Shown piece by piece: positions 20,925 through 59,082 of a stretch of 64,000 nt of DNA; position 1 is the first letter of the stretch; every line of letters begins with the position of its first letter. This stretch comes from Alphaproteobacteria bacterium. GTDB lineage: Bacteria; Pseudomonadota; Alphaproteobacteria; Rickettsiales; 21-14-0-20-44-7. A program made the position numbers and the translations under genes. The DNA lies in contig JAYVPI010000001.1 of NCBI GenBank assembly GCA_043757405.1, positions 211,437 to 275,436 on the forward strand, in the 5' to 3' direction. The notes beneath the pieces are model-generated. The model did no database searches and had not been told where the DNA came from. It worked only from the letters and a program-made list of their open reading frames with translations.

Positions 20925-21145
20925 GTCATTGCGAGCTCTTGCGCGGTGTTGTATGGTAAGACTCCATAACATAAATAAGGACTGTCATCCTCGAACCGAA
21001 GGTTCGGGGATCCAGGGTTAAAGCCACCGGCGGAGTGTTTGATCCTGGATCCCCGCCCAAGTGGGCGAGGATGACGGTGTCTGTTTTTGGTAATCAAATA
21101 TCAATAACTTACCGAGCCATGCAACAATGCCGCTCTTGCAATGAC
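20925..21145. repeat. Composite nested palindromic element: outer GTCATTGCGAG...CTTGCAATGAC, with inner GTCATCC...GGATGAC at 20984-21075
   Basis: The outer arms are imperfect inverted repeats and the inner element has two hairpin modules. The reverse complement closely matches 23849-24119. Confidence 0.8.
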
Positions 21146-22263: not shown

Positions 22264-22348
22264 TGGTGCGGTTAAAAAGACTCGAACTTTCACCCCGTGA
22301 AGGACAGCGACCTCAACGCTGCGCGTCTACCAATTCCGCCATAACCGC
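22264..22348 (-). tRNA. tRNA-Leu (anticodon GAG), class II, CCA encoded
   Basis: Manual fold: acceptor GCGGTTA/TAACCGC; anticodon stem CAGCG/CGCTG with loop TTGAGGT; long variable arm; T-loop TTCGAGT. The 3' end is ACCA. Confidence 0.85.
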
Positions 22349-22395
22349 ACACTGGAAGCGGGTTTAGCAGGGGGCAGAAAAAGAATCAACTGATT

Positions 22396-22455
22396 TCGTT
22401 TATCGTTGATCGTTGATCGTAAATTGTATAACGGTAAACGATCAACGATAAACGA
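22396..22455. repeat. TCGTTGATCG-type palindromic element (copy 1)
   Basis: TCGTTTATCGTTGATCGTT and AACGATCAACGATAAACGA are perfect 19-bp arms around AAATTGTATA. The element is related to 46953-47024. Confidence 0.7.
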
Positions 22456-22459
22456 GCTC

Positions 22460-23071
22460 ATGCAAATCATAAGATCAAACGAGCTGGTAGATTATCCTTC
22501 GGCGCTTTCCTTCATGGAAAACCGGGTGGACGCGATTATTGAGGGCACGGCGGAAAACACGCTTTGGCTGCTGGAACATCCGCCACTATACACTTCAGGT
22601 ACCTCAGCCAAAATCTCGGATTTATTGCAGCCGGAATTTCCAGTTTACAAGGCCGGGCGTGGCGGGGAATATACTTATCACGGGCCAGGGCAGCGCGTGG
22701 TTTATGTTATGCGGCGGCTGGAGAAACATGACTTGCGGGCCTATGTGCGGGATTTGGAACAGTGGATAATCAATACGCTGGCGCATTTTGGGATCATGGG
22801 TGAGCGGCGTGAGGGGCGGATTGGAATTTGGGTGGCGGCGAATGGCAGCGAAGCAAAAATCGCAGCACTGGGAATCCGCGTGCGGAAATGGGTGGCTTAT
22901 CATGGGATCGCGATCAACGTGAAACCGGATTTGCGCCATTTTGGCGGAATTGTTCCCTGTGGGATTTCAGAATTTGGGGTGACATCGTTTGAGAAACTGG
23001 GAGTGAAAGTTTCGCTGAATGAAGTGGATGAAGTTTTGATTGAGGAATTCATAAAATTATTTAAAAACTAA
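22460..23071 (+). CDS. lipB: Octanoyltransferase LipB
   Basis: Contains [11 protein letters not shown] and [17 protein letters not shown]. The start is set at MQIIRSNE; the upstream part of the track ORF runs through the palindrome. Confidence 0.9.
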
Positions 23072-23848: not shown

Positions 23849-24119
23849 GTCATTGTGGGCTTAGCCAGCGTTGTTGCATGGCTCGGAAAGTTATTGATAT
23901 TTGGTCACCAAAAACAGACGCCGTCATCCTCGCCCGCTTGGGCGGGGATCCAGGGTCGAACACTCCGTAGGTGTCTGTAGCCCTGGATCCCCGAACCTTC
24001 GGTTCGAGGATGACAGTCTTTATTCGTGCTATGGAATCTTAACCATGCAACAACGCCGCTTAAAGCCGTAATCAATCTCCATGCTTGAGTTGAGATTGCG
24101 GCTCGTAGGCCGCAATGAC
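23849..24119. repeat. Composite nested palindromic element, inverted copy of 20925-21145 (inner element 23923-24014)
   Basis: Aligns base for base, with few differences, to the reverse complement of 20925-21145. It carries an extra hairpin, ATTGCGGCTCGTAGGCCGCAAT. Confidence 0.8.
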
Positions 24120-34699: not shown

Positions 34700-34763
34700 G
34701 TCATCCTGCGACTTGATCGCAGGATCTCTTAGAGAAGACCCTATGGTCAAGCCATAGGATGAC
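34700..34763. repeat. GTCATCC...GGATGAC palindromic element, intergenic
   Basis: GTCATCCTGCGACTTGATCGCAGGATC...CCTATGGTCAAGCCATAGGATGAC. The left module is identical to the one in dnaE (42660). Confidence 0.85.
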
Positions 34764-40125: not shown

Positions 40126-40173
40126 GTCATCTTGAGCGCAAGCGAAAGATCTTTCGCTCGCGCTCAAGATGAC
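40126..40173. repeat. 48-bp palindromic element at the era/dnaE junction
   Basis: GTCATCTTGAGCGCAAGCGAAAGA|TCTTTCGCTCGCGCTCAAGATGAC has one arm mismatch. It contains the dnaE stop codon (40164-40166). Confidence 0.85.
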
Positions 40174-43100
40174 GATGGAAGGCAAATGCCCTCGATGAAC
40201 ATTATCTGCTCTTTTAAATTATCATTCACCGCATAATATCCCGGCAGTTCCAGCACCACTTCGCTAACGCCCGTTTGCGCTTTTAATATTACGCGGTTTT
40301 TGAACAACATGCCGCTTTCATATATATTCGCAGCTAATAAATTTCTCAGTTTCGCCACCGCTTCCAGGTTATCTGCAACAAAATTCAAGTCCTGGACTTT
40401 TATAAAACGCAGGAAATTTGCCTTAATTGCCGCTTGCAATTCTTCTATCCTCTCTGCCAACAAACGCACACCACCTTCATCTTTCTTCGCCTCGGCCGTA
40501 ATCAATATCGGCGTATTACTCGCCAACATTTCCGCCGCGCGGGTGATTAGGTCATCTTCGTAGAGAACAATTTCAAACACCCCCATCCCATCCGAAACTT
40601 TCGCAAACGCAAACCGCCCACGCTTGCCGGAACGAATATTCAAGGTTGCCAGCACACCAGCTAAACGAACTTTGGTCGAAGCGCTCTTCAGGCGTTCTTC
40701 GATTTGTATTGATGGCAACACGCCCATTTCATCGAGGATATGCTGATAATCATTCAATGGATGGTCTGATAAATAAAACCCAAATGCCTCATATTCCGCC
40801 TTCAGACGCTCATTGGAATCCCAATCGCTGGCCTGTACTAACGAGGGTTTTGGCGCTTCGCCAATCGTTCCTTCGCCAAATAAGCTGATTTGCGAAGAGT
40901 CAATTTCTTCCTGGCAAATATTGTTATACCGGCTGAGCATCTCCGCCGATTCCAGGATCTGCCGGCGGTTGCAAGCCATGCCGTCAAACGCCCCTGCCTT
41001 CGCCAAACCTTCCAAATGCTTCTTATTAATCACCTTAACATCGCAGCGTTTGCAAAAATCAAACACATCGGCGAACTTCCCGTTCTCCTTCCTCTGCGCC
41101 GCCATTGCTTTCGCCGCTTCGATACCAACGCCTTTTAATGCACCTAGCGCATAACGGATTGAGCCGTTTTCAGGTTGGAAATAAGCCTCTGAGGAGTTGA
41201 TATCAGGAGACAAAACTTTGATACCGCGTTTGCTGGCTTCGTGTTTATAAAAGCTGAGTTTGTCGGTGTCGGCAATATCGAGGTTCATACAGGCGGTCAA
41301 AAACTCCACCGGGTAATGGCAGCTCAAATATGCTGTCTGGTAGGCAATCACCGAATAAGCCACCGCGTGGGATTTGTTGAAACCGTAACCGGCGAATTTG
41401 GCGATCAAATCAAAAATATCCGCCGCCAGTTTTTTATTGATCCCCTTCTCCGCCGCACCTTCGGCAAACATCAGGCGTTGTTCATCCATCTCCGCCTTAA
41501 TCTTCTTGCCCATCGCCCGCCGCAGCAAATCCGCTTTGCCAAGCGAATATCCGGCCAATATTTGCGCGGATTGCATAACCTGTTCTTGATAAACCAAAAT
41601 TCCATATGTCTCATTCAACAAATCCGACAATGAAATATGCGGATATTGCACCTCTTCCTTGCCGTGTTTCCGCGCATTATAACTCGGAATATTTTCCATC
41701 GGGCCGGGGCGGCAAAGCGAAGTTAGTGCCACGATATCCTCAAATTTATCAGGGCGCATTTTGCGAATTGCGTCTTTCACCAAAGTTGTATCCAACTGGA
41801 ATACACCCGCCGTTTCACCTTTGGAAAGCATATGGAAAATCTTCTCATCATCCAGCGGTAGGTTGTGGATATCAACTTTATTCCCCCCAGCCTCAACAAA
41901 CTGCCGCGCCTTATCCACCAGCGTCAATGTACGCAAACCGAGGAAATCGAACTTCACCAACCCGGCCGTTTCCGCATCTTTCATCGAATATTGCGAAACC
42001 GGCATTTCTGAGCGCGGGTCTTTATATAACGGCACCAACTCCACCAATGGCCGGTCAGCAATCAATATTCCCGCCGCATGTGTAGAAGCATGGCGATTCA
42101 ATCCTTCGAGTTTCAGCGCCACATTCAACAATCGTCCGATATTCTCATCATCACGTTGCAACCGCCGCAGTTCAGGATCCATATCTATCGCTTTGGAAAG
42201 CGTCACCGGGTCAATTGGATTGAACGGAATCATTTTAGAAATCCTATCAACTTCCATGTAGGGAATTTGCATCACCCGCCCGACATCGCGCAGCACCGCC
42301 CGCGCTTGTAGTTTTCCGAAAGTGATAATCTGGCAGACACGGTCGTGGCCATATTTATTACGCACATAATCGATCACCTCATCGCGCCGCTCCTGGCAGA
42401 AATCGATATCAAAATCCGGCATTGATACACGTTCAGGATTCAAGAACCGTTCAAACAGCAAGCCAAACCGCAACGGGTCAACATCGGTGATTTGTAGCGC
42501 CCAGGCTACTAAGGAACCTGCACCCGAACCCCGTCCCGGCCCCACCGGAATTCCCTGGCCCTTCGCCCATTTGATGAAGTCGGATACGATTAAGAAATAG
42601 CCCGGAAATTTCATCTTGATAATGACATCAAGCTCGAATTCCAGCCTAGTCCAATATTCGTCATCCTGCGACTTGATCGCAGGATCTTGTGAGTGCATCT
42701 CAGGAGGTCCTGCGGTCAAGCCGCAGGATGACGTTTTAGTATTTAAGCGCTCCTGCAAACCCTCACGCGCCTGCACCCGTAACTCATCTTCCTGCGTCCT
42801 GCCAGCCTCAGTTGGATAATCCGGCAACATCGGCTGACGTCCTTCTGCTTTAACCGAGCAACGTTTCGCAAGCTGCACCGTATTGGCAATCGCCTCCGGA
42901 ATATCCGCAAAAATCGCTATCATTTCCTCAGCTGATTTAAAATAGAATTGGTCGTTATATTTCTTGCGGTTTTCATCAACCAAATATTTGCCCTCGGCGA
43001 TACATATCAGCGCGTCATGGGCCTCGGACATATCCTGGGTTGAATAGAAGCAATTATTAGTGGCGATCAGTGGGAGATTATATTTATAGGCTATATCTAT

Positions 43101-43625
43101 CAGGCCAGGTTCAACTTTTTCCTCTTCCTCCAATCCATGCCGCGTCAATTCAACATAGAGGCGGTTCGGGAACATACCATTCAGGCGCTCGGCGAATTGT
43201 TGGGCTTTTTGGGTTTCACCCTTGGAGATGAGTTTAGCCATTTCCCCTTCCACTCCGGCGGTTAGGCATAGCAAACCTTCGGTATATTGTTCCAACTCCA
43301 CCAGATCAAGGCTCGCTTCGTGCGGGGAGCTGGAGCGGAGTATAGATTGGCTGACTAATTTGAGGAGATTTTGGAAGCCTGTTTGATTTTGCGCATATAA
43401 AACTAATTTTGAACCCTCAACTTTGACTTCGCAGCCGATAATGGGCTGCACACCTTTATAGGCCGCCGCTTTGGAAAATTCCAGGATGCCAAAAAGATTG
43501 CCGCTATCAGTAATCGCCACAGCCGGCATATCATAATGCACCGCCATCTCCACCAGTTCCCCAATCCTAATCGCGCCCTCGGAAAGCGAAAACTGGGTGT
43601 GGTTGCGGAGATGGATGAATTGCAT
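40164..43625 (-). CDS. dnaE: DNA polymerase III subunit alpha
   Basis: The PHP N-terminus (MQFIHLRNHTQFSLSEGA) and FPGYFLIV are present. Length is 1153 aa. Confidence 0.97.
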   Translation of the reverse strand: MQFIHLRNHTQFSLSEGAIRIGELVEMAVHYDMPAVAITDSGNLFGILEFSKAAAYKGVQPIIGCEVKVEGSKLVLYAQNQTGFQNLLKLVSQSILRSSSPHEASLDLVELEQYTEGLLCLTAGVEGEMAKLISKGETQKAQQFAERLNGMFPNRLYVELTRHGLEEEEKVEPGLIDIAYKYNLPLIATNNCFYSTQDMSEAHDALICIAEGKYLVDENRKKYNDQFYFKSAEEMIAIFADIPEAIANTVQLAKRCSVKAEGRQPMLPDYPTEAGRTQEDELRVQAREGLQERLNTKTSSCGLTAGPPEMHSQDPAIKSQDDEYWTRLEFELDVIIKMKFPGYFLIVSDFIKWAKGQGIPVGPGRGSGAGSLVAWALQITDVDPLRFGLLFERFLNPERVSMPDFDIDFCQERRDEVIDYVRNKYGHDRVCQIITFGKLQARAVLRDVGRVMQIPYMEVDRISKMIPFNPIDPVTLSKAIDMDPELRRLQRDDENIGRLLNVALKLEGLNRHASTHAAGILIADRPLVELVPLYKDPRSEMPVSQYSMKDAETAGLVKFDFLGLRTLTLVDKARQFVEAGGNKVDIHNLPLDDEKIFHMLSKGETAGVFQLDTTLVKDAIRKMRPDKFEDIVALTSLCRPGPMENIPSYNARKHGKEEVQYPHISLSDLLNETYGILVYQEQVMQSAQILAGYSLGKADLLRRAMGKKIKAEMDEQRLMFAEGAAEKGINKKLAADIFDLIAKFAGYGFNKSHAVAYSVIAYQTAYLSCHYPVEFLTACMNLDIADTDKLSFYKHEASKRGIKVLSPDINSSEAYFQPENGSIRYALGALKGVGIEAAKAMAAQRKENGKFADVFDFCKRCDVKVINKKHLEGLAKAGAFDGMACNRRQILESAEMLSRYNNICQEEIDSSQISLFGEGTIGEAPKPSLVQASDWDSNERLKAEYEAFGFYLSDHPLNDYQHILDEMGVLPSIQIEERLKSASTKVRLAGVLATLNIRSGKRGRFAFAKVSDGMGVFEIVLYEDDLITRAAEMLASNTPILITAEAKKDEGGVRLLAERIEELQAAIKANFLRFIKVQDLNFVADNLEAVAKLRNLLAANIYESGMLFKNRVILKAQTGVSEVVLELPGYYAVNDNLKEQIMFIEGICLPSSS
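42660..42732. repeat. GTCATCC...GGATGAC element inserted in frame in dnaE
   Basis: GTCATCCTGCGACTTGATCGCAGGATC...CCTGCGGTCAAGCCGCAGGATGAC encodes SSCGLTAGPPEMHSQDPAIKSQDD. Confidence 0.85.
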
Positions 43626-43706: not shown

Positions 43707-44378
43707 CTATTCAACCTTCCCGCCATGGATCTTCAACACACGATCCATCTTATCGACCAGCGCCTGGTTATGCGTGGCGATCAACGCGCAGCAGTTGGTT
43801 TTTTTAATCATCTGGCGCAGCAAATCGAAGACTATACCGGAATTGTGCTCGTCCAGGTTTCCGGTTGGTTCATCGGCCAAAATCACCGCTGGACTATTCG
43901 CCAATGCCCGTGCAATTGCCACACGCTGCTGCTGCCCGCCGGAGAGTTGGGATGGGCGGTGAGTTTTACGGTCGGACAGGCCCATTACTTCCAAAAGTTC
44001 TTCTGCTTTTTTGAGGGCGGCGGTTTTGGCAACGCCATTTATGATTTGTGGGATGCACAGGTTTTCCAGGGCTGTAAACTCCGGGAGTAAATGATGGAAT
44101 TGATAAACGAAGCCAATATTCTTACGGCGGGCGGCGGTGCGCCTTTTATCATTCGCAGTGGCGAAATCTTCATCGCTGATTTTGATAATACCGGATTGGG
44201 GTTTGTCTAATAGTCCTGCGATTTGCAGCAATGTGGTTTTGCCGGAACCGCTTGGCCCCACGAGCGCAACAACTTCGCCAGGATTGAGGCTGATATTTAT
44301 GCCGTTAAGGACTTTGATTTCCTCGCCGCCCTGGATGAAATGCTTATGCACATTTTGCATTTCAAGTAACTTACTCAT
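43707..44378 (-). CDS. lolD: Lipoprotein-releasing system ATP-binding protein LolD
   Basis: GPSGSGKTT, LSGGQQQRVAIARA and a LolD-type motif region are present. ATG 44378 is preceded by AAGGATGGAG. Confidence 0.85.
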   Translation of the reverse strand: MSKLLEMQNVHKHFIQGGEEIKVLNGINISLNPGEVVALVGPSGSGKTTLLQIAGLLDKPQSGIIKISDEDFATANDKRRTAARRKNIGFVYQFHHLLPEFTALENLCIPQIINGVAKTAALKKAEELLEVMGLSDRKTHRPSQLSGGQQQRVAIARALANSPAVILADEPTGNLDEHNSGIVFDLLRQMIKKTNCCALIATHNQALVDKMDRVLKIHGGKVE

Positions 44379-44396
44379 AACTCCATCCTTCAACAG

Positions 44397-44476
44397 CCGT
44401 CACCCCGCACTTGTTGCGGGGTCTATTCACAAGTTCATGCCCTGTAATGGATGCCGCAACAAGTGCGGGGTGACGG
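44397..44476. repeat. GTCACCCCG...CGGGGTGAC palindromic element between lolC/E and lolD
   Basis: Perfect 23-bp inverted arms CCGTCACCCCGCACTTGTTGCGG / CCGCAACAAGTGCGGGGTGACGG flank 34 bp. Confidence 0.9.
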
Positions 44477-44485
44477 TTTTGGTGG

Positions 44486-45736
44486 CTATTCATAACGCAA
44501 CGCCTCCGCCGGATCTAGTTTGGCGGCGCGCCAGCTTGGATAGATCGTGGCGATCAGGGAAATTAATAGCGAAATTCCCGCTACTTCGAGAACTTCTTTT
44601 GGGTTCACCAGCGCTGGAAGATGATCGAGGTGATAGATCTCCGGGTTAAAAACTTGTGTTTTGGTGACATATTCAACTGCTTTTTGTATGGGGCCGATGT
44701 AGTGGCAGAATAATAAGCCAAGTAAAACTCCGCTAAGCGTTCCGACGACGCCATTAAAACTGCCAACTAGCATAAATGCGCGTTGCACGGCGCGGCGCTC
44801 CATTCCCATTGTGCGGAGGATGGCGATTGATTGGGACTTGTCTTTTACAAGCATAATCATGCCGCTGATGATGTTGAATGAGGCCACCAAAATTATCATG
44901 CTGAGGATTATGAACATCATATTGCGCTCGGTTTGCACGGCGCCAAAGAATTGGGAGTTGGCTTGCTGCCAGTCATAGACGCGGTACCTGTCGCCGTAGC
45001 GATCGTGCAGTTTATAAGCATATGGCAGCGCATCGTCTAAATTTTTGACTTCAATGCCAAGGCTTTCAACCTTACCGCCAAAATCAAAGAGCCCTTGCGC
45101 AGTTTCAAGCGGGATATAAACCATATTGCGATCATATTCCTGCATACCAAGATTAAAGATGCCGACGATTTTGAAAGTTTTCTTGCGCGGGATGGCGCCA
45201 AAGACGGTTGAGGTGGATTGAGGAGTGAGGATGGTAATTTCGTTGCCGATATATGCATCCAACGCACTGGCCAGTTTGAATCCGATGATGATGCCATCTT
45301 CGCCAAAATCTTTCCATTCGCCAACAAAATCCATATTATTGACGAGCTTATTCGCCTGTAATTTTTCCGACGGAACCCCGCGTACTTTGACGCCTTCAAC
45401 CGCACCTTTGGCATGCGGGTTGAAAATCACCGCATTGCCCTCGATAGTTGGCGTCACGGATTTAACTTCCGGATCTTTCTCAATTTCCTTTTGAAGCAAC
45501 TGCCAATCCGGCAATCCGCGCTCCAGTGAATAAACCGAAACATGCGAATTTACGCCAAGGATGCGGCCCAGCAAGTCATTACGAAAGCCGTTCATAACTG
45601 AGAGGACGATGATAAGCGTCGCCACGCCGAGGCTTATGCCGACAATCGAAAGTCCCGCCACAATCGATATCATTCCCTCCCGCTTTTTTGTGCGTAGATA
45701 GCGGGCGGCGAGTGTTAGTTCCAGTTTATTGAACAT
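44486..45736 (-). CDS. Lipoprotein-releasing system transmembrane protein, LolC/LolE family
   Basis: N-terminus [21 protein letters not shown], with MacB-like periplasmic and FtsX domains. Length is 416 aa. Confidence 0.85.
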
Positions 45737-46949
45737 TTATTACCTTATTTAAAGCCGCCTCAACCGAAACTTCCTGCTTCTCACTAGATTTGCGATTCTT
45801 CAACTCAACCATTCCATTGGCCGCGCTTCTTGGCCCCACAGCAATTTGCCACGGTAGCCCGATCAAATCCATCGTTGCAAATTTCGCACCCGCTGAACCA
45901 TCGCGGTCATCGTATAAGCAGCTTGCGACTTTGCCATAGATTTCACTGCAGATTTTATCGCAGGCAGCATCACCAGGTTTGATGTTGATTAGCCCGAGTT
46001 TATATGGCGCGACCGGTTCCGGCCAGATGATGCCATTTTCGTCGTGGCTGGCTTCGATAATCGCCCCCACCAGTCGCGAAACGCCGATGCCGTAACTGCC
46101 CATTTGCGGGATAATTTCCTTACCGTCCGGCCCTTGGACTTTGACTTTCATGGCACGCGAATATTTATCGCCGAAATAGAATATGTGGCCAACTTCAATC
46201 CCCCGCGCTTCCTTGAAACCTTGTGGCGCGGTTTTGGGATCGTGCATTTCATCGGCCATGGCATATGAAAAATCATCGGTGTAATAAAGCGCCGACTCTC
46301 CGGTCTGCGCGACGATATGGAATTCGTGGCTCAAATCTCCGCCGATTGGCCCTGTATTGGCGCGAACAGGCACGGCTTTCAATCCCATGCGGGAGAAGGC
46401 TTTTAAATATGCGCCGTGATATTTCCAATATGTTTCCTGCGCCGCTTTTTCGTCGATATCAAAGCTATAAGCATCCTTCATCAAAAATTCGCGGCCGCGC
46501 ATGACGCCGAACCGTGGGCGGACTTCGTCGCGGAATTTCCATTGGATGTTATAAAGCATTTTTGGCAGGTCTTTATATGACTTGCAGGATTGGCGGAAAA
46601 TATCGGTGACAACTTCCTCCGCTGTCGGGCCAAAGAGCAGATCGCGGTCAGAGCGGTCTTTTATACGCAGCATTTCCTTGCCATAAGCTTCATATCGCCC
46701 AGATTCCTGCCATAATTCAGCCGGTTGCATAGTCGGCATCAATAGTTCCAGCGAGCCGATCGCGTCCATTTCCTCCCGAACGATTTGTTCGATATTTTTG
46801 AGGACTTTCAAGCCCAAAGGCAGCCAATTATAGATCCCCGCCCCCACTTGGCGCACCATTCCGGCACGCAGCATCAGGCGATGTGAGGCAATTTGCGCCT
46901 CAGCCGGATTTTCTTTGATTATCGGAAGGAGATATTGGCTTAGTTTCAT
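45726..46949 (-). CDS. proS: Proline--tRNA ligase (short form without editing domain)
   Basis: N-terminus [34 protein letters not shown]. Class II motifs are present. Confidence 0.9.
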
Positions 46950-46952
46950 AAG

Positions 46953-47024
46953 TCGTTCGTTGTTAATCGTTGATCGTTCATCGCTTGTAATTCGATAAAC
47001 GATTAACGATGAACGATCAACGAA
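46953..47024. repeat. TCGTTGATCG-type palindromic element (copy 2)
   Basis: TCGTTGATCGTTCATCG...CGATGAACGATCAACGA with a TTGTAA centre, between the proS and rpmG starts. Confidence 0.65.
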
Positions 47025-47089
47025 AAAGCTTGACTTTGCTGTGGGCGATGGCTAAAAACCCTGACAAATCAAAGAATCGGATAAGAAAA

Positions 47090-49654: not shown

Positions 49655-50377
49655 CTATTTTTTATCGCAAACCGCCTCAAAAAATATCGCCCGCGTGGTA
49701 TTGGCGAGGTTTTTCTTCTGATACTTAGTTTCAATATGGTCAATAGGTTGTGTTTGCCAATCTGCCCTGGAACCTGCCAACCAACGAAATTTATCGTGTT
49801 CCAGCAATTCTCTGGCGATCCATTTAGCATAATCTTCGTGATCCGTGGCAATTCTGAGCCTGGCATCCCGCTTCATAATTCGTGCAAGCAAGTCTAAAGT
49901 TTGCTTCGATATTATCCGGCGTTTATTCTGCCGTTTCTTTGGCCACGGATCGGGGAACAGTATAAATACACGATCAATAACTCCCTCCCACACGTCATCC
50001 TGCGGCTCGACCGCAGGATCTCCTATGGTCAAGCCATATGGTGACGTAATTAATTGACGAAAATCTCCGGCATAGACTCGGATATTCTTAAGCTCATTCT
50101 CTTCAATCCCACGCAATAATTTTACAGTTCCGTTTACAAACGGCTCGCAGCCAATAAAGCCAATTTTGGGATTTGCCAGCGCCTGATGCAATAAATGACC
50201 ACCATCACCAAAGCCGATCTCCAGCCAGATTTCTTTGAAATCAAACTTAGGAAAGCCGTCAACTTTCACTTTGGGCAAAACTTCCGCCAACAGCTTTTTG
50301 GAATTATCACGCAGCTTGCGCGACTTGGTACGACCAAAGCTTTGCAGGTATTTAGGCGACTGCTTTGCGTAATTCAT
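49655..50377 (-). CDS. trmB: tRNA (guanine46-N7)-methyltransferase TrmB
   Basis: Contains [14 protein letters not shown]. The start is set at ATG 50377 and overlaps the metK 3' end by 26 nt. The track's 50443 start is less likely. Confidence 0.85.
49994..50045. repeat. GTCATCC...GGTGAC element inserted in frame in trmB
   Basis: GTCATCCTGCGGCTCGACCGCAGGATCTCCTATGGTCAAGCCATATGGTGAC encodes [17 protein letters not shown]. Confidence 0.8.
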
Positions 50378-52194: not shown

Positions 52195-53760
52195 TTAAAC
52201 TTTTCTTCTAAAAATTAATAAAAACTCCACACTGATTATGATTAATCCAAATATTATCCAATCACCGTATAATGAATATATAGTTACCGAATTATTTAAT
52301 TCAAGATCGGCGGATAAAAATCCATGCTGATTATAAGCCAATGATTTTACAATCCGCCCATTCTTATCAATAATCGCCGAAACTCCTGTATTAGCCGCCC
52401 GCAACATTGGCACCCCTTGCTCAATTGAACGCATTTGCGACATCGCCAGATGTTGATACGGCCCCGTCGAATTTCCAAACCACCCATCATTAGTAACATT
52501 AACCAGCAAATCCGGCTTGACTGCCGAATGGGAAAATTCCGGAAATGTGACTTCATAACAAATCAACGGCAAAAACCCCGGCCCGTTTTTATATTTCATC
52601 ACCTCACGCTTGCCCCCTTGCGAAAAATCCAGCGCTCCAGGCGTAATTTTTTCCAGCGGCAAATAATTCCGGAACGGCACAAACTCCCCAAACGGCACAA
52701 GGTGAATTTTGTCATAAGACTGATAAATCCCATCTTTGCTGATAGCATAAAGCGTGTTCCAAACCTGGTAATTACTTTTGCTTTCCCCGCTAGAGCGCAA
52801 CCCGCCAGTAACCAACACCCCATTATCCGGCGCCACACGCCTCAACAAATCCGTCACTGGCTGCTGCCGGTTCAAATAATAAGGCGCTCCCGATTCCGGC
52901 CACAAAACTATATCCGCGTTTTTATAATCCAGCGTCTGCATGAAATCTATATTCTCAATAAACTGCTTCTTCGCCGCCAACGGCTCCCACTTCAACGATT
53001 GCTCAACATTGGGTTGGAAGATTATGACTTTGGCAGTTTTATCTAAATCACCCTCACCTTTGCCAAAACATAACAGGCCATACAGAATTATAATCCCTAC
53101 AAGAGCAACAACCCCAACAAGTGATTTCTTATTTTTATAATAAAGCGGCAATAGCGAAATAATTATCACTACATAGCTCAACAAATAAACTCCGCCCGCT
53201 GAAGCAAGCTGTGAAAAAATAGTTGAAACTAGTGCCGTATATCCAATCAAATTCCATGGAAACCCCGTGAACAACCATGTGCGGATTAATTCAAAAACCA
53301 CCCATAATATAGAGAAAAGGATAATATCATTCCAATTCCCGCATTTGTCATCCTCGGGCTTGACCCGAGGGTCCAGCGATGAGTATGCCGCATGGCTGGA
53401 TCCCAGCCTTCGCTGGGATGACCTAAATGCGAGAGCAAACAACCCAATATAAATCGCCAGACCAAATGGAATCCCGCATACCGCAAACGGAATCAGCCAC
53501 GCAAATTTTTCTGCATCAACAAGTAGTGAGTTAGCAATCCAATATAAGCCAAACACAAAATACCCAAAGCCGAATGCCCAGCCGATTTTGAATGCCTGTA
53601 TCTTATTTTCCGCCGCAGCAAGAATTTTAAAAAATATTGGGAATGAGATAAATAAAACCGGAAAGATATAAAACGGCGCCAATGCCAAATCCGCCAATCC
53701 GCCAGCGGCAATTAGCGTTAAATACTTCAGCTTTCCTTGCAAAAAAAATTTTATCCCCAT
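52195..53760 (-). CDS. lnt: Apolipoprotein N-acyltransferase
   Basis: An N-terminal polytopic region and a CN-hydrolase domain with the LICYEVTFPE catalytic Cys context are present. Confidence 0.9.
   Translation of the reverse strand: MGIKFFLQGKLKYLTLIAAGGLADLALAPFYIFPVLFISFPIFFKILAAAENKIQAFKIGWAFGFGYFVFGLYWIANSLLVDAEKFAWLIPFAVCGIPFGLAIYIGLFALAFRSSQRRLGSSHAAYSSLDPRVKPEDDKCGNWNDIILFSILWVVFELIRTWLFTGFPWNLIGYTALVSTIFSQLASAGGVYLLSYVVIIISLLPLYYKNKKSLVGVVALVGIIILYGLLCFGKGEGDLDKTAKVIIFQPNVEQSLKWEPLAAKKQFIENIDFMQTLDYKNADIVLWPESGAPYYLNRQQPVTDLLRRVAPDNGVLVTGGLRSSGESKSNYQVWNTLYAISKDGIYQSYDKIHLVPFGEFVPFRNYLPLEKITPGALDFSQGGKREVMKYKNGPGFLPLICYEVTFPEFSHSAVKPDLLVNVTNDGWFGNSTGPYQHLAMSQMRSIEQGVPMLRAANTGVSAIIDKNGRIVKSLAYNQHGFLSADLELNNSVTIYSLYGDWIIFGLIIISVEFLLIFRRKV
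53347..53422. repeat. GTCATCC...GGGATGAC element inserted in frame in lnt
   Basis: GTCATCCTCGGGCTTGACCCGAGG...GATCCCAGCCTTCGCTGGGATGAC encodes GSSHAAYSSLDPRVKPEDD. Confidence 0.8.
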
Positions 53761-53763
53761 AAC

Positions 53764-53834
53764 GTCATCCTGCGGCTTGACCGCAGGAACTCCTCATACA
53801 CGCACCAGACCCTGCAATCAAGTAGCAGGGTGAC
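53764..53834. repeat. GTCATCC...GGGTGAC element at the lnt start / bioF end
   Basis: GTCATCCTGCGGCTTGACCGCAGG...CCCTGCAATCAAGTAGCAGGGTGAC. It contains the bioF stop (53818-53820) and lies 3 nt upstream of the lnt ATG. Confidence 0.8.
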
Positions 53835-54951
53835 ACATATTTAGTGTTTTAAGCCAATCCGCCAATAAATCAATTTCACTTTTCGTATGCGCCGCCGTCA
53901 CCGAAATGCGGAGCCGCGCCGTCCCCTTAGGCACCGTTGGCGGCCGCATCGCCGAGACTAGTATTTTATTATCCTTAAGCAACTTCTCCGCCGCTAGCGC
54001 CTTTTCCTCGCTGCCCAAAATAATAGGAACGATACTTGAAGTTCCGTCATTACGAGCGAAGCGCGGCAATGACGATTTAAGATATTCCGTATTCTTCAAT
54101 ACTTTCAAATATAGCTCATCCCGCCCAGCAATCTCCAGCGCCTTTATCGCCGCACCAACCGCGAATGGCGGCAGCCCAGTTGAATAAATCAATGATCGCG
54201 CCTTAGTCTCCAAATACCGAATCAAAGCCCGAGAACCACAAACATACCCCCCATAACTCCCCAGCGCCTTTGACATTGTCCCGATATAAATGTGAGCTTT
54301 AAGTTTTGATTTTTGATAAATGGAGTGTGCGCCGTCAACTATTAGTGTGCAGTTGTTTTTATCGGCGATTTCCTTCAGCTCATCAACCGGAGCAAAATCC
54401 CCATCCATTGAAAAGATCTCTTCGGTGATGATGAGCCGCCTGCGCTTATCGTCATTCTGAGCGCAAGCGAAGGATCCTTCGCTTGCGCTCAGAATGACGT
54501 CTTTCTCCAAACACTTCTTCAAGTCAGCAACATCATTATGCTTAAACCGCACCAGCTTTGCGCCGGAGAGCTTTATTGCGTCGATTATAGAAGCGTGGAC
54601 TAATTTATCGGCATAAACCACTTCCGGCTCCAGCGCTGTGATAACGCCAAGATTTGCCAGATATCCGCTGCCAAATACCGTGGCGGCCTCATAACCTTTA
54701 TAAGCCGCGATTTTTTCAGCAAATTCCCCAAATAATGGATGATTTCCGCCCGCAATCCTGCTTGCCCCCGCTCCTGCGCCATATTTTTCCGCAGCTTCTA
54801 TTCCGGCAATAATCACTTCCGGATGGCGGCTTAAACCTAAATAATCATTTGATGTAAAATTGATAAATCCTTCCCCCCACTCACCCTTGGGCGTTCGCAG
54901 GAGATTTTTATCCTTCAAATCATTTAGTTTTTGCTGTAATAGACTATCCAT
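53818..54951 (-). CDS. bioF: 8-amino-7-oxononanoate synthase
   Basis: SNDYLGL and the PLP-Lys context [12 protein letters not shown] are present. The start is set at ATG 54951 (MDSLLQQKL...); the track's 55011 start is TTG. Confidence 0.85.
54451..54498. repeat. Perfect 48-bp palindrome inserted in frame in bioF
   Basis: GTCATTCTGAGCGCAAGCGAAGGA|TCCTTCGCTTGCGCTCAGAATGAC has 24+24 arms with no mismatch. It encodes [16 protein letters not shown]. Confidence 0.9.
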
Positions 54952-55900
54952 GAACATCCGACACGATTGGAAACAGTCTGAAGTTATAGATTTATTCGCC
55001 CTGCCTTTCAACGACCTAATATTTCAGGCCGCCAGCGTGCACCGCGCCAATCATGATCCAAACGCGGTTCAAATCTCGACATTACTCTCCATAAAAACCG
55101 GCGGCTGCGCGGAAGATTGTAAATATTGCCCGCAATCCGCATCATATGACACCCCCGTAAAAGCCGAAAAACTCACCACAGTTGAACATGTCCGCTCCGA
55201 GGCCACAAAAGCCAAAGCCGCCGGAGCTTCCCGCTTTTGCATGGGCGCCGCCTGGCGTTCGCCTAAGGATCGGGATTTGGATAATGTTATTGAGATGGTG
55301 AAGGTGGTGAAGGATCTGGGGTTGGAGTCGTGCTGCACATTGGGCATGTTGACGAAACCACAAGCCGAGAAATTGAAGGATGCGGGGCTGGATTATTACA
55401 ACCACAACATCGATACTTCCCCGGAATATTACGGAAATATAATCACCACCCGCACCTTCCAAGACCGCCTCGATACACTCGCGCATGTGCGCGAGGCCGG
55501 AATGAAAACCTGCTGCGGCGGCATAGTAGGAATGGGCGAATCAGTGGCCGACCGCGCCGGTATGCTGCTGACATTGGCGAATTTGCCTGAACACCCGGAA
55601 TCCGTCCCGATTAATCTGCTAGTCCCAGTCGAAGGCACCCCATTCGGCAATCGGCAATCGGCAATCGGCAATCTCGACTTCGTCCGCATGATCGCCGTGG
55701 CGCGGATATTAATGCCAAAATCCGCAATACGCCTGTCAGCAGGCCGCGAAGAAATGTCAGACGAAATGCAGGCGTTATGTTTCCTAGCGGGTGCAAATTC
55801 GATTTTTTATGGCGAAAAATTATTAACCACTCCGAATCCGGAAGCCCTTGAAGATAAGAAGCTTTTTGACCGACTGGGTCTTAAAGCTATGGCAGTTTAA
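54950..55900 (+). CDS. bioB: Biotin synthase
   Basis: The radical-SAM motif [11 protein letters not shown] is present. The start is the first ATG, at 54950 ([16 protein letters not shown]). Confidence 0.95.
55645..55673 (+). repeat. Heptanucleotide tandem repeat (CGGCAAT)x4 +1 inside bioB
   Basis: The run is perfect: cggcaat cggcaat cggcaat cggcaat c. It encodes GNRQSAIGN. Confidence 0.95.

Positions 55901-55934: not shown

Positions 55935-59082
<3,148 letters not shown>

Follow-up and report, generated by a model that had tools for sequence, protein, structure and literature searches.

The CGTC-tagged repetitive extragenic palindromic sequences (REPs) were defined by Di Nocera, De Gregorio & Rocco (2013, BMC Genomics 14:522; PMC3733652) as dispersed, multi-copy elements, mainly alphaproteobacterial, that are also found inside genes. 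Each module carries an unpaired terminal CGTC, with TGTC and CCTC allowed as variants, an 8-9-bp stem with complementary A and T as its first and second bases, a 4-5-nt loop and a short unpaired 3-nt tail that is mostly CCA. The modules mostly form dimers with the tags outside ('HH'), separated by spacers of about 1-100 bp, and neither an associated transposase nor an association with RAYT is reported for them. Families CGTC-3 and CGTC-4 have a 9-bp stem and a 5-nt loop, and CGTC-4 of Rickettsia conorii corresponds to RPE-4. The present analysis concerns a 73-nt near-perfect palindrome of this type at positions 42660-42732 of a 64-kb stretch of alphaproteobacterial DNA from contig JAYVPI010000001.1 (hereafter the window, meaning the whole stretch analysed), where it is read in frame within dnaE, the gene for the alpha subunit of DNA polymerase III. 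The phenomenon is already described, both for the CGTC class and for dnaE itself in R. conorii (PMC3733652); what is new here is the alphaproteobacterial lineage and the site of REP insertion in dnaE.

In R. conorii dnaE (RC1211), a single CGTC-4 REP occupies aa 853-861 and encodes DTVVKPRCD, and the supplementary list of the same study places further REPs in R. conorii trmB and S. alaskensis lnt (PMC3733652). REP-bearing genes across species include dnaE, dnaE2, polA, uvrABCD and recBCD, a recurrence that the authors deemed unlikely to be fortuitous; they also argue that many REPs act as RNA elements and cite in-vivo expression of Rickettsia proteins decorated with RPE-1. The genes dnaE, trmB and lnt are hit in the window as well as on that list for R. 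conorii or S. alaskensis, always at other positions. These differing sites indicate that the events are independent, and the overlap in hit genes could reflect permissive proteins or gene length.

The dnaE element shares with CGTC-3 and CGTC-4 REPs the CGTC tag, an A-T-starting stem of 8-9 bp, a loop of 4-5 nt, the tag-outside dimer arrangement and a variable spacer, together with an alphaproteobacterial host, dispersed copies, and copies within open reading frames (ORFs) that encode 20-30 aa; no transposase is among the 11 window proteins scanned. It departs from them in its tail, which is CTT or CCT where CCA is usual, and in the unusually high share of intragenic copies here, at least six of about 17 in 64 kb. 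RPE-4 (CGTC-4) and RPE-6 encode the same kind of peptides and lie in frame in essential housekeeping genes, dnaE included; unlike the case of RPE-4, the present host is not Rickettsia, and the dnaE copy, a dimer that encodes 24 aa, occupies aa 299-322 of the palm region, whereas the R. conorii copy is a single unit at aa 853-861. RPE-1 elements are likewise palindromic repeats that occur in frame in a wide range of unrelated genes, where their positions are considered compatible with fold and function (Ogata et al. 2000; PMC10969869), but they measure about 100-150 bp (~150 bp according to PMC10969869) and encode a conserved peptide of their own from unrelated sequence, whereas the element here is 73 nt long and encodes a CGTC-4-type peptide.

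More distant comparisons are instructive for architecture. As in GTAG REPs and REPINs (PMC3116915), the larger hairpin is built from two inverted hairpin modules, a short tag stands beside a co-varying stem, and the element is non-autonomous; GTAG REPs are thought to be mobilised by RAYT transposases (PMC3116915), whereas the tag here is CGTC and no RAYT is seen among the window proteins. The Coxiella elements QMITE1 and QMITE2 (PMC5896051) are small palindromes of an intracellular bacterium that reach across gene 3' ends and provide terminal residues or stop codons, comparable to a palindrome at the dnaE stop codon described below, but they span 150-400 bp with direct repeats, QMITE2 carries a GTAG REP, and in functional genes they lie mostly at 3' ends and not internally. 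As regards miniature inverted-repeat transposable elements derived from insertion sequences, the dnaE element has terminal inverted repeats but no flanking direct repeat, a ~10-nt duplication is present at the lolE/lolD junction, and the element is not known to have a parent insertion sequence. An intein or a group I/II intron can in practice be ruled out, since 24 aa or 73 nt is too short and Rfam reports only one tRNA in the window.

Anatomy and class of the dnaE palindrome

The element reads GTCATCCTGCGACTTGATCGCAGGATC-ttgtgagtgcatctcaggag-GTCCTGCGGTCAAGCCGCAGGATGAC and extends to 75 nt (42659-42733) when the outermost C and G of the CGTC tags are counted. Its arms, 42659-42693 and 42699-42733, are 35 nt each and 86% complementary. 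Taken as RNA on the dnaE-sense strand, it is predicted to form one extended hairpin with a folding energy of -53.9 kcal/mol (z = -10.9 relative to shuffles), and folded as DNA it reaches -31.9 kcal/mol (z = -10.6). The first 27 nt (GTCATCCTGCGACTTGATCGCAGGATC) are identical to positions 34700-34726, in agreement with an earlier remark that the left module matches the intergenic copy at 34700. Allowing up to three mismatches, this 27-mer occurs six times in the window and in none of 100 dinucleotide-preserving shuffles.

The features that define CGTC-tagged REPs can be traced one after another along the element (Table 1). The CGTC tag lies at 42659-42662 and its complement GACG at 42730-42733. 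Between them, ATCCTGCGA pairs with TCGCAGGAT over 9 bp starting with A-T, ATCCTGCGG pairs with CCGCAGGA(c), and both stems are closed by the same 5-nt loop, CTTGA. The two modules face each other with tags outside across a 19-nt spacer, and the other strong copies in the window are tag-outside dimers as well. Because the stem sequence of module B differs from that of module A, the dnaE element is a heterodimer. Its tails are C-TT and CC-T, and metagenome copies of the module mostly end in ...ATCCA. A covariance model built on the REP module (R1) scores the two modules at 46.4 and 44.0 bits, and the multi-copy character of the family is evident from 11 strong modules and about 17 palindromes in the window. 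Across the window, the core module has the consensus (C)GTC-ATCCTGCGR-CTYGA-YCGCAGGAT-C, with a 9-bp stem and a 5-nt loop, and the GTCAT...ATGAC palindromes consist of facing modules with their GTC ends outside, separated by ~0-20 nt in the 52-76-nt copies and by ~35 nt in two 92-nt copies. Judged by this sequence anatomy, the dnaE element is a CGTC-tagged REP dimer.

The encoded peptides point to a particular family. The supplementary table of PMC3733652 lists WILRSSRGMT, VIPRLDRGI and DTVVKPRYD as intragenic peptides of R. conorii CGTC-4, and the same three frames of the present module give two peptides (19 letters together) and DPAVKPQDD; the R. conorii peptides are matched in all open frames. 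As far as peptides can tell, the closest described family therefore appears to be CGTC-4 (RPE-4), an assignment made by encoded peptides; the exact family may be CGTC-3 or CGTC-4.

Conservation within the family follows the hairpin. A set of 25 distinct modules was compared, 10 of them taken from the window and the others being the non-queried partners in metagenome copies. Pairing across the 9-bp helix holds in 95% of cells, against at most 41% for slid registers. Double-sided changes are found at five of the nine stem pairs (29 cells), for example GCGA/TCGC, ATGG/CCAT, TTCG/CGAA and ATTCT/AGAAT against ATCCT/AGGAT, and neither the pairing nor the covariation was equalled in any of 500 shuffles. 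It is thus the hairpin and the fixed tag that are conserved, not the stem sequence, as expected of a structure that is recognised in copying or that acts as RNA.

Searches for a described RNA family, a mobilising enzyme or an earlier record of the literal sequence gave little. Rfam at its gathering threshold returned one tRNA in the whole window and nothing over the dnaE element, and a Pfam scan of 11 window proteins found no transposase among them. At one metagenome locus (L140), a 147-aa ORF lies between two copies; by eye it is not transposase-like and resembles a small lipoprotein. A literature search with the literal strings GTCATCCTGCG, CGCAGGATGAC, GTCATTCTGAGC and GTCATCCCGCG returned primer coincidences only.

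Reading frame, junctions and protein site in dnaE

Apart from the insert, the host gene is intact. Its ORF contains the Pfam domains PHP, DNA_pol3_alpha, finger and HHH_6, together with a weak OB match that falls short of the Pfam cut-off, and the protein can be aligned with E. coli Pol III alpha over its whole length (E = 7e-260). The catalytic aspartates D404, D406 and D560 are invariant in the DnaE alignment. Relative to the nearest orthologue (locus L082), dN/dS is 0.027 with dS at 2.6 (saturated), and dnaE as a whole is under strong purifying selection. The status of the gene is judged from this one 64-kb window, a second dnaE copy elsewhere in the genome being possible. A separate Logan assembly of run SRR23617274 contains an identical dnaE with the same insert and junctions.

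The in-frame palindromic insertion is present in the 1153-aa ORF as it was first described. It is read without a stop as (T) plus 24 residues, aa 299-322, encoding a hydrophilic peptide rich in Ser, Gly, Pro and Asp. The preliminary description had put the insert about 25 residues upstream of the conserved FPGYFLIV motif; the distance from the end of the insert to this motif (residue 340) is in fact 17 residues. Two of the six frames of the dnaE copy are open, against 2.4 expected from shuffles, and the idea that the element is purpose-built to be stop-free was rejected on that comparison.

Comparison with relatives argues that the segment is new. A large protein search returned the identical protein and a graded series of orthologues, the nearest being P0002 (89% identity, 1127 aa), P0003 (83%) and P0004 (81%). 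The segment is absent from these three and from 16 further DnaE sequences aligned with them, and a motif scan of 120 listed DnaE homologues found CGTC-type peptides in the window's own protein only (0 of the 119 others); the alignment with orthologues proposed beforehand as a check thus came out in favour of an insertion. The best DnaE relatives are alphaproteobacteria, the closest of them from metagenomes; identity to Rickettsiales proteins is ~50-52%, and the best DnaE matches in a scan of GTDB genomes are ~50% identical.

At the DNA level, alignment with the orthologous loci defines native flanks of AAA-AC and GAA-TAT. Between them, the window carries the 73-nt element in place of the 28 nt found in two relatives (L083 and L084), which amounts to a net 45 nt or 15 codons gained, and against the short loop of L082, the closest relative, the net gain is 69 nt or 23 codons. 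The earlier figure of a roughly 24-aa insert consequently holds for what the element encodes, 24 aa, while the gain of the protein is smaller, +23 aa relative to the closest orthologue and +15 aa relative to the next two. Since 73 nt do not make up whole codons, the element either shares a native terminal G, giving a 72-nt gain, or native loop codons were lost with or after the insertion. Module A is identical to another genomic copy despite a saturated dS in the host gene, which argues that the insertion is far younger than the split from L082. The alignments indicate that the dnaE segment is a lineage-specific insertion and not ancestral sequence. The suggestion that a multi-copy palindromic element had inserted is likewise borne out, in that the family has intergenic copies and the host gene is otherwise intact.

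The insertion site falls in a loop of variable length. By alignment, its E. coli DnaE equivalent is about residues 306-318, a short loop of ~13 residues, and the length varies among homologues, as had been stated beforehand for E. coli; among alphaproteobacterial DnaE proteins it ranges over about 5-22 residues. On these alignments, the insert loop is a general indel hot spot. We take the site to be the beginning of the palm domain, just after PHP, assuming the boundaries of Lamers et al. 2006. In an AlphaFold2 model (mean predicted local distance difference test score, pLDDT, 75), aa 299-318 have pLDDT <50 and lack secondary structure, and the insert region lies between confidently predicted helices 278-300 and 315-337; this placement uses the secondary structure and pLDDT of the model. 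The insertion adds ~24 residues, probably floppy ones, to a variable loop.

Related copies in the window, relatives and metagenomes

The family is expanded specifically in this lineage. The covariance model finds 11 strong modules (E < 1e-5) in the window. Run with filters off over 50.5 kb of syntenic DNA belonging to the three closest relatives, it finds no module, and with default filters it finds none in 1.57 Mb around dnaE at 83 other loci (80 loci from other alphaproteobacterial genomes and those of the three closest relatives). With variants included, the window holds about 17 palindromes, of which at least six are wholly intragenic (dnaE, trmB, lnt, bioF twice and bioA; neighbour genes were identified by Pfam). 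Table 1 collects the features. The CGTC tag recurs at 54450, 56998 and 40125.

Table 1. Position of dnaE, of the parts of its REP dimer and of related palindromes within the window
Feature	Position	Strand	Remark
dnaE, host gene	40164..43625	-	DNA polymerase III alpha subunit, 1153 aa
CGTC-type REP dimer, tags outside	42660..42732	-	read in frame within dnaE, aa 299-322
Module A, GTC-ATCCTGCGA-CTTGA-TCGCAGGAT-C	42660..42686	+	9-bp stem, 5-nt loop; covariance model E = 7.7e-11
Spacer between modules, 19 nt	42687..42705	.	itself partly self-complementary (GTGAG...CTCAG)
Module B, GTC-ATCCTGCGG-CTTGA-CCGCAGGA-CC	42706..42732	-	covariance model E = 3.6e-10
64-nt REP dimer, same family	34700..34763	.	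intergenic between convergent genes; covariance model
48-nt near-perfect palindrome, related GTCAT-ended family (GTCATCTTGAGCGCAAGCGAAAGATC...)	40126..40173	.	overlaps dnaE 3' end
80-nt dimer of CGTCACCCCGCA-type variant	44397..44476	.	inserted at lolE/lolD junction (44360-44510)
52-nt REP dimer in trmB-like gene	49994..50045	-	in frame, 17-residue peptide; absent from L083 orthologue
76-nt REP dimer in lnt (SSQRRLGSSHAAYSSLDPRVKPEDD)	53347..53422	-	in frame; absent from L083 orthologue
71-nt REP dimer	53764..53834	.	intergenic between lnt and bioF-like gene; covariance model
30-nt CGTC-flanked hairpin in bioF-like gene	54046-54075		encodes SLPRFARND; ORF continuity
48-nt perfect palindrome in bioF-like aminotransferase	54451..54498	-	in frame, 16 residues; ORF continuity, Pfam span
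64-nt REP dimer in bioA	56999..57062	+	in frame, 21-residue peptide; ~30 residues vs ~8 in E. coli BioA

Outside this lineage, the exact 25-nt module occurs in at least 120 metagenome contigs, which come from numerous freshwater, sediment and wetland metagenomes, and the 80 metagenome loci examined (L085-L164) span a G+C content of 0.38 to 0.62. A partner module is present in 51 of 85 metagenome copies, the commonest length then being 73 nt. The 73-nt dimer with an AT-rich spacer (…GGATCCAATAAAAAATAG…) recurs among these contigs, and the constancy of the module sequence across apparently diverse metagenome hosts is striking. Elsewhere the REP family is mainly intergenic, in agreement with the literature. 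The two-module copies inside genes measure 73, 64, 52 and 76 nt, all equal to 1 modulo 3 (4 of 4); this length class was rejected as an intragenic hallmark, since about half of the metagenome copies share it.

Together, the palindromes at 42660-42732 and 40126-40173 give dnaE two such elements. The latter supplies the last dnaE codons and the TGA stop, so that the protein ends in ...GICLPSSS* where relatives end in ...GIKAC*, ...GVAINQ* or ...GIKIA*. A side effect is that the era ORF acquires a spurious N-terminal extension. The bioF-like ORF (53818..55011) similarly contains two separate in-frame palindromes, and the peptide of the shorter one resembles R. conorii CGTC-1 peptides (DSRFRGND; PMC3733652).

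The junction of lolE and lolD offers a possible clue to the insertion mechanism. In relatives the two genes overlap (TTATGAATAAG), and here they are separated by the 80-nt dimer and about 30 nt. The overlap sequence stands on both sides of the insert (GTTATGAATAG ... GTTATGAGTAAG), with a ~10-nt duplicate, GTTATGA(A/G)TA, that looks like a target duplication sparing both genes. This hints that at least some REP insertions duplicate target DNA.

Several repeats of other kinds are also present. In thiC (ORF 57205..59082), two copies of a CCTCCCTCAGGGAGG hairpin at ~57670-57750 encode ~24 residues that Caulobacter ThiC (3EPM) lacks; they represent a second, unrelated palindrome family, again in frame. 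A 174-nt inverted repeat (20957-21130 and 23868-24041, 90% complementary) holds a 92-nt REP dimer inside each arm and encloses 2.7 kb with an rlmJ-like gene, a tRNA (22267-22348), a lipoyl ligase (LplA/B-type) gene and yaaA; an inversion site and a composite structure are both conceivable. Inverted repeats at 22391-22460 and 46944-47025 share the motif TCGTTGATCGTT(C/G)ATCG, one lying upstream of the lipoyl ligase gene and the other starting in the first bases of proS and running upstream; they may represent a further repeat family or a shared operator-like site.

Origin of the insert and its significance

Collectively, these observations make it very probable that a CGTC REP copy inserted into a dnaE loop as a selfish or neutral element, retained only at permissive positions where the frame is preserved and no stop arises. 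In such a scenario, the REP family would have multiplied in this lineage and one copy would have landed in the variable dnaE loop between two helices, where the palm region begins. Survival would have depended on the addition of whole codons (net +72 nt with a shared G, or 73 nt replacing 28), on an open frame and on a hydrophilic peptide placed outside the fold, and selection would filter insertions down to frame-keeping ones in permissive loops. The insert is most likely transcribed and translated along with dnaE and neutral or slightly deleterious for the polymerase; its translation, tolerance and selfishness are what we infer. As to copying, one may speculate, with low confidence and by analogy with GTAG REPs and RAYT, that a trans-acting enzyme recognises a single-stranded DNA hairpin together with the conserved tag.

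Several points weigh against this account. Translation of the insert in this organism is assumed, and a simple clean insertion cannot explain the whole event, 73 nt not being a multiple of 3. The dnaE copy shows no target-site duplication, and a mobilising enzyme is neither known for such elements nor seen in the window. The near-perfect hairpin kept within a coding region could reflect selection on structure instead of youth. Finally, only 2 of 85 metagenome copies lie deep inside long ORFs, unlike the high intragenic share in the window.

The very stable predicted structure (-53.9 kcal/mol, z = -10.9) bears on a different explanation, in which the hairpin works at the RNA or DNA level in dnaE, for instance by being processed by RNase III or RNase E, by pausing translation or as a roadblock to replication or transcription that tunes expression, with the peptide as a by-product. 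The compensatory changes that maintain the module hairpin family-wide, the view of many REPs as RNA elements (PMC3733652) and the position of the second palindrome exactly at the dnaE stop codon would suit such a role. Covariation is, however, equally expected if the hairpin serves copying alone; the same elements lie in unrelated genes and in intergenic DNA, and a scan for promoters and terminators around the insert found no such signal. As the insert is absent from every relative examined, there is no sign of dnaE-specific selection, and a regulatory hairpin of this kind appears unlikely. Selection might instead have acted on the protein, with the insert altering the polymerase, for example into a mutator replicase; Di Nocera et al. 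offered this speculation for REPs located in genes of replication and repair (PMC3733652). The recurrence across species of REPs in the replication and repair genes named above, from dnaE to recBCD (PMC3733652), speaks for this, as do the hits here in dnaE and in trmB and lnt, the latter two being also hit in R. conorii and S. alaskensis, respectively. The sites, however, differ (aa 299-322 here, aa 853-861 in R. conorii), the prediction for the insert is a disordered loop, and long genes such as dnaE are large targets. Moreover, the other genes hit in the window (trmB, lnt, bioF and bioA) have biosynthetic or housekeeping functions, which favours tolerance over targeting. An effect on the polymerase itself is accordingly considered very unlikely.

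Further alternatives are removal of the segment before function, as a mini-intron or an intein-like element, or its origin as a metagenome assembly artefact. Nothing positive supports either, apart from the source genome appearing to be uncultured. With 72-73 nt, the segment is far below the size of group I/II introns, 24 aa is far below intein size, and the only Rfam match in the window is the tRNA. The junctions are identical in the independent assembly of run SRR23617274, and the frame is kept in six intragenic cases, a pattern that an artefact would not repeat. We give these possibilities almost no credence. A broader proposal also seems improbable to us, namely that CGTC REPs, instead of being randomly tolerated, are recurrently captured by replication and repair genes and that the hairpin or loop modulates expression or fidelity of the replicase, as a selected regulatory or mutator device; were it true, this lineage would offer a natural system in which to test it, its dnaE holding two palindromes.

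Insertion of a selfish or neutral REP, the favoured reading, opens no new biological category, and its interest is modest and partly practical. It adds a new lineage, and a new position in the replicative polymerase, to the known cases of palindromic repeats within essential genes. In Pol III alpha, the loop where the palm begins apparently accepts 24 extra residues, which is useful for tagging or engineering DnaE, and the genome, apparently unusually rich in intragenic REPs, could serve the study of how CGTC REPs spread and are absorbed by proteins.

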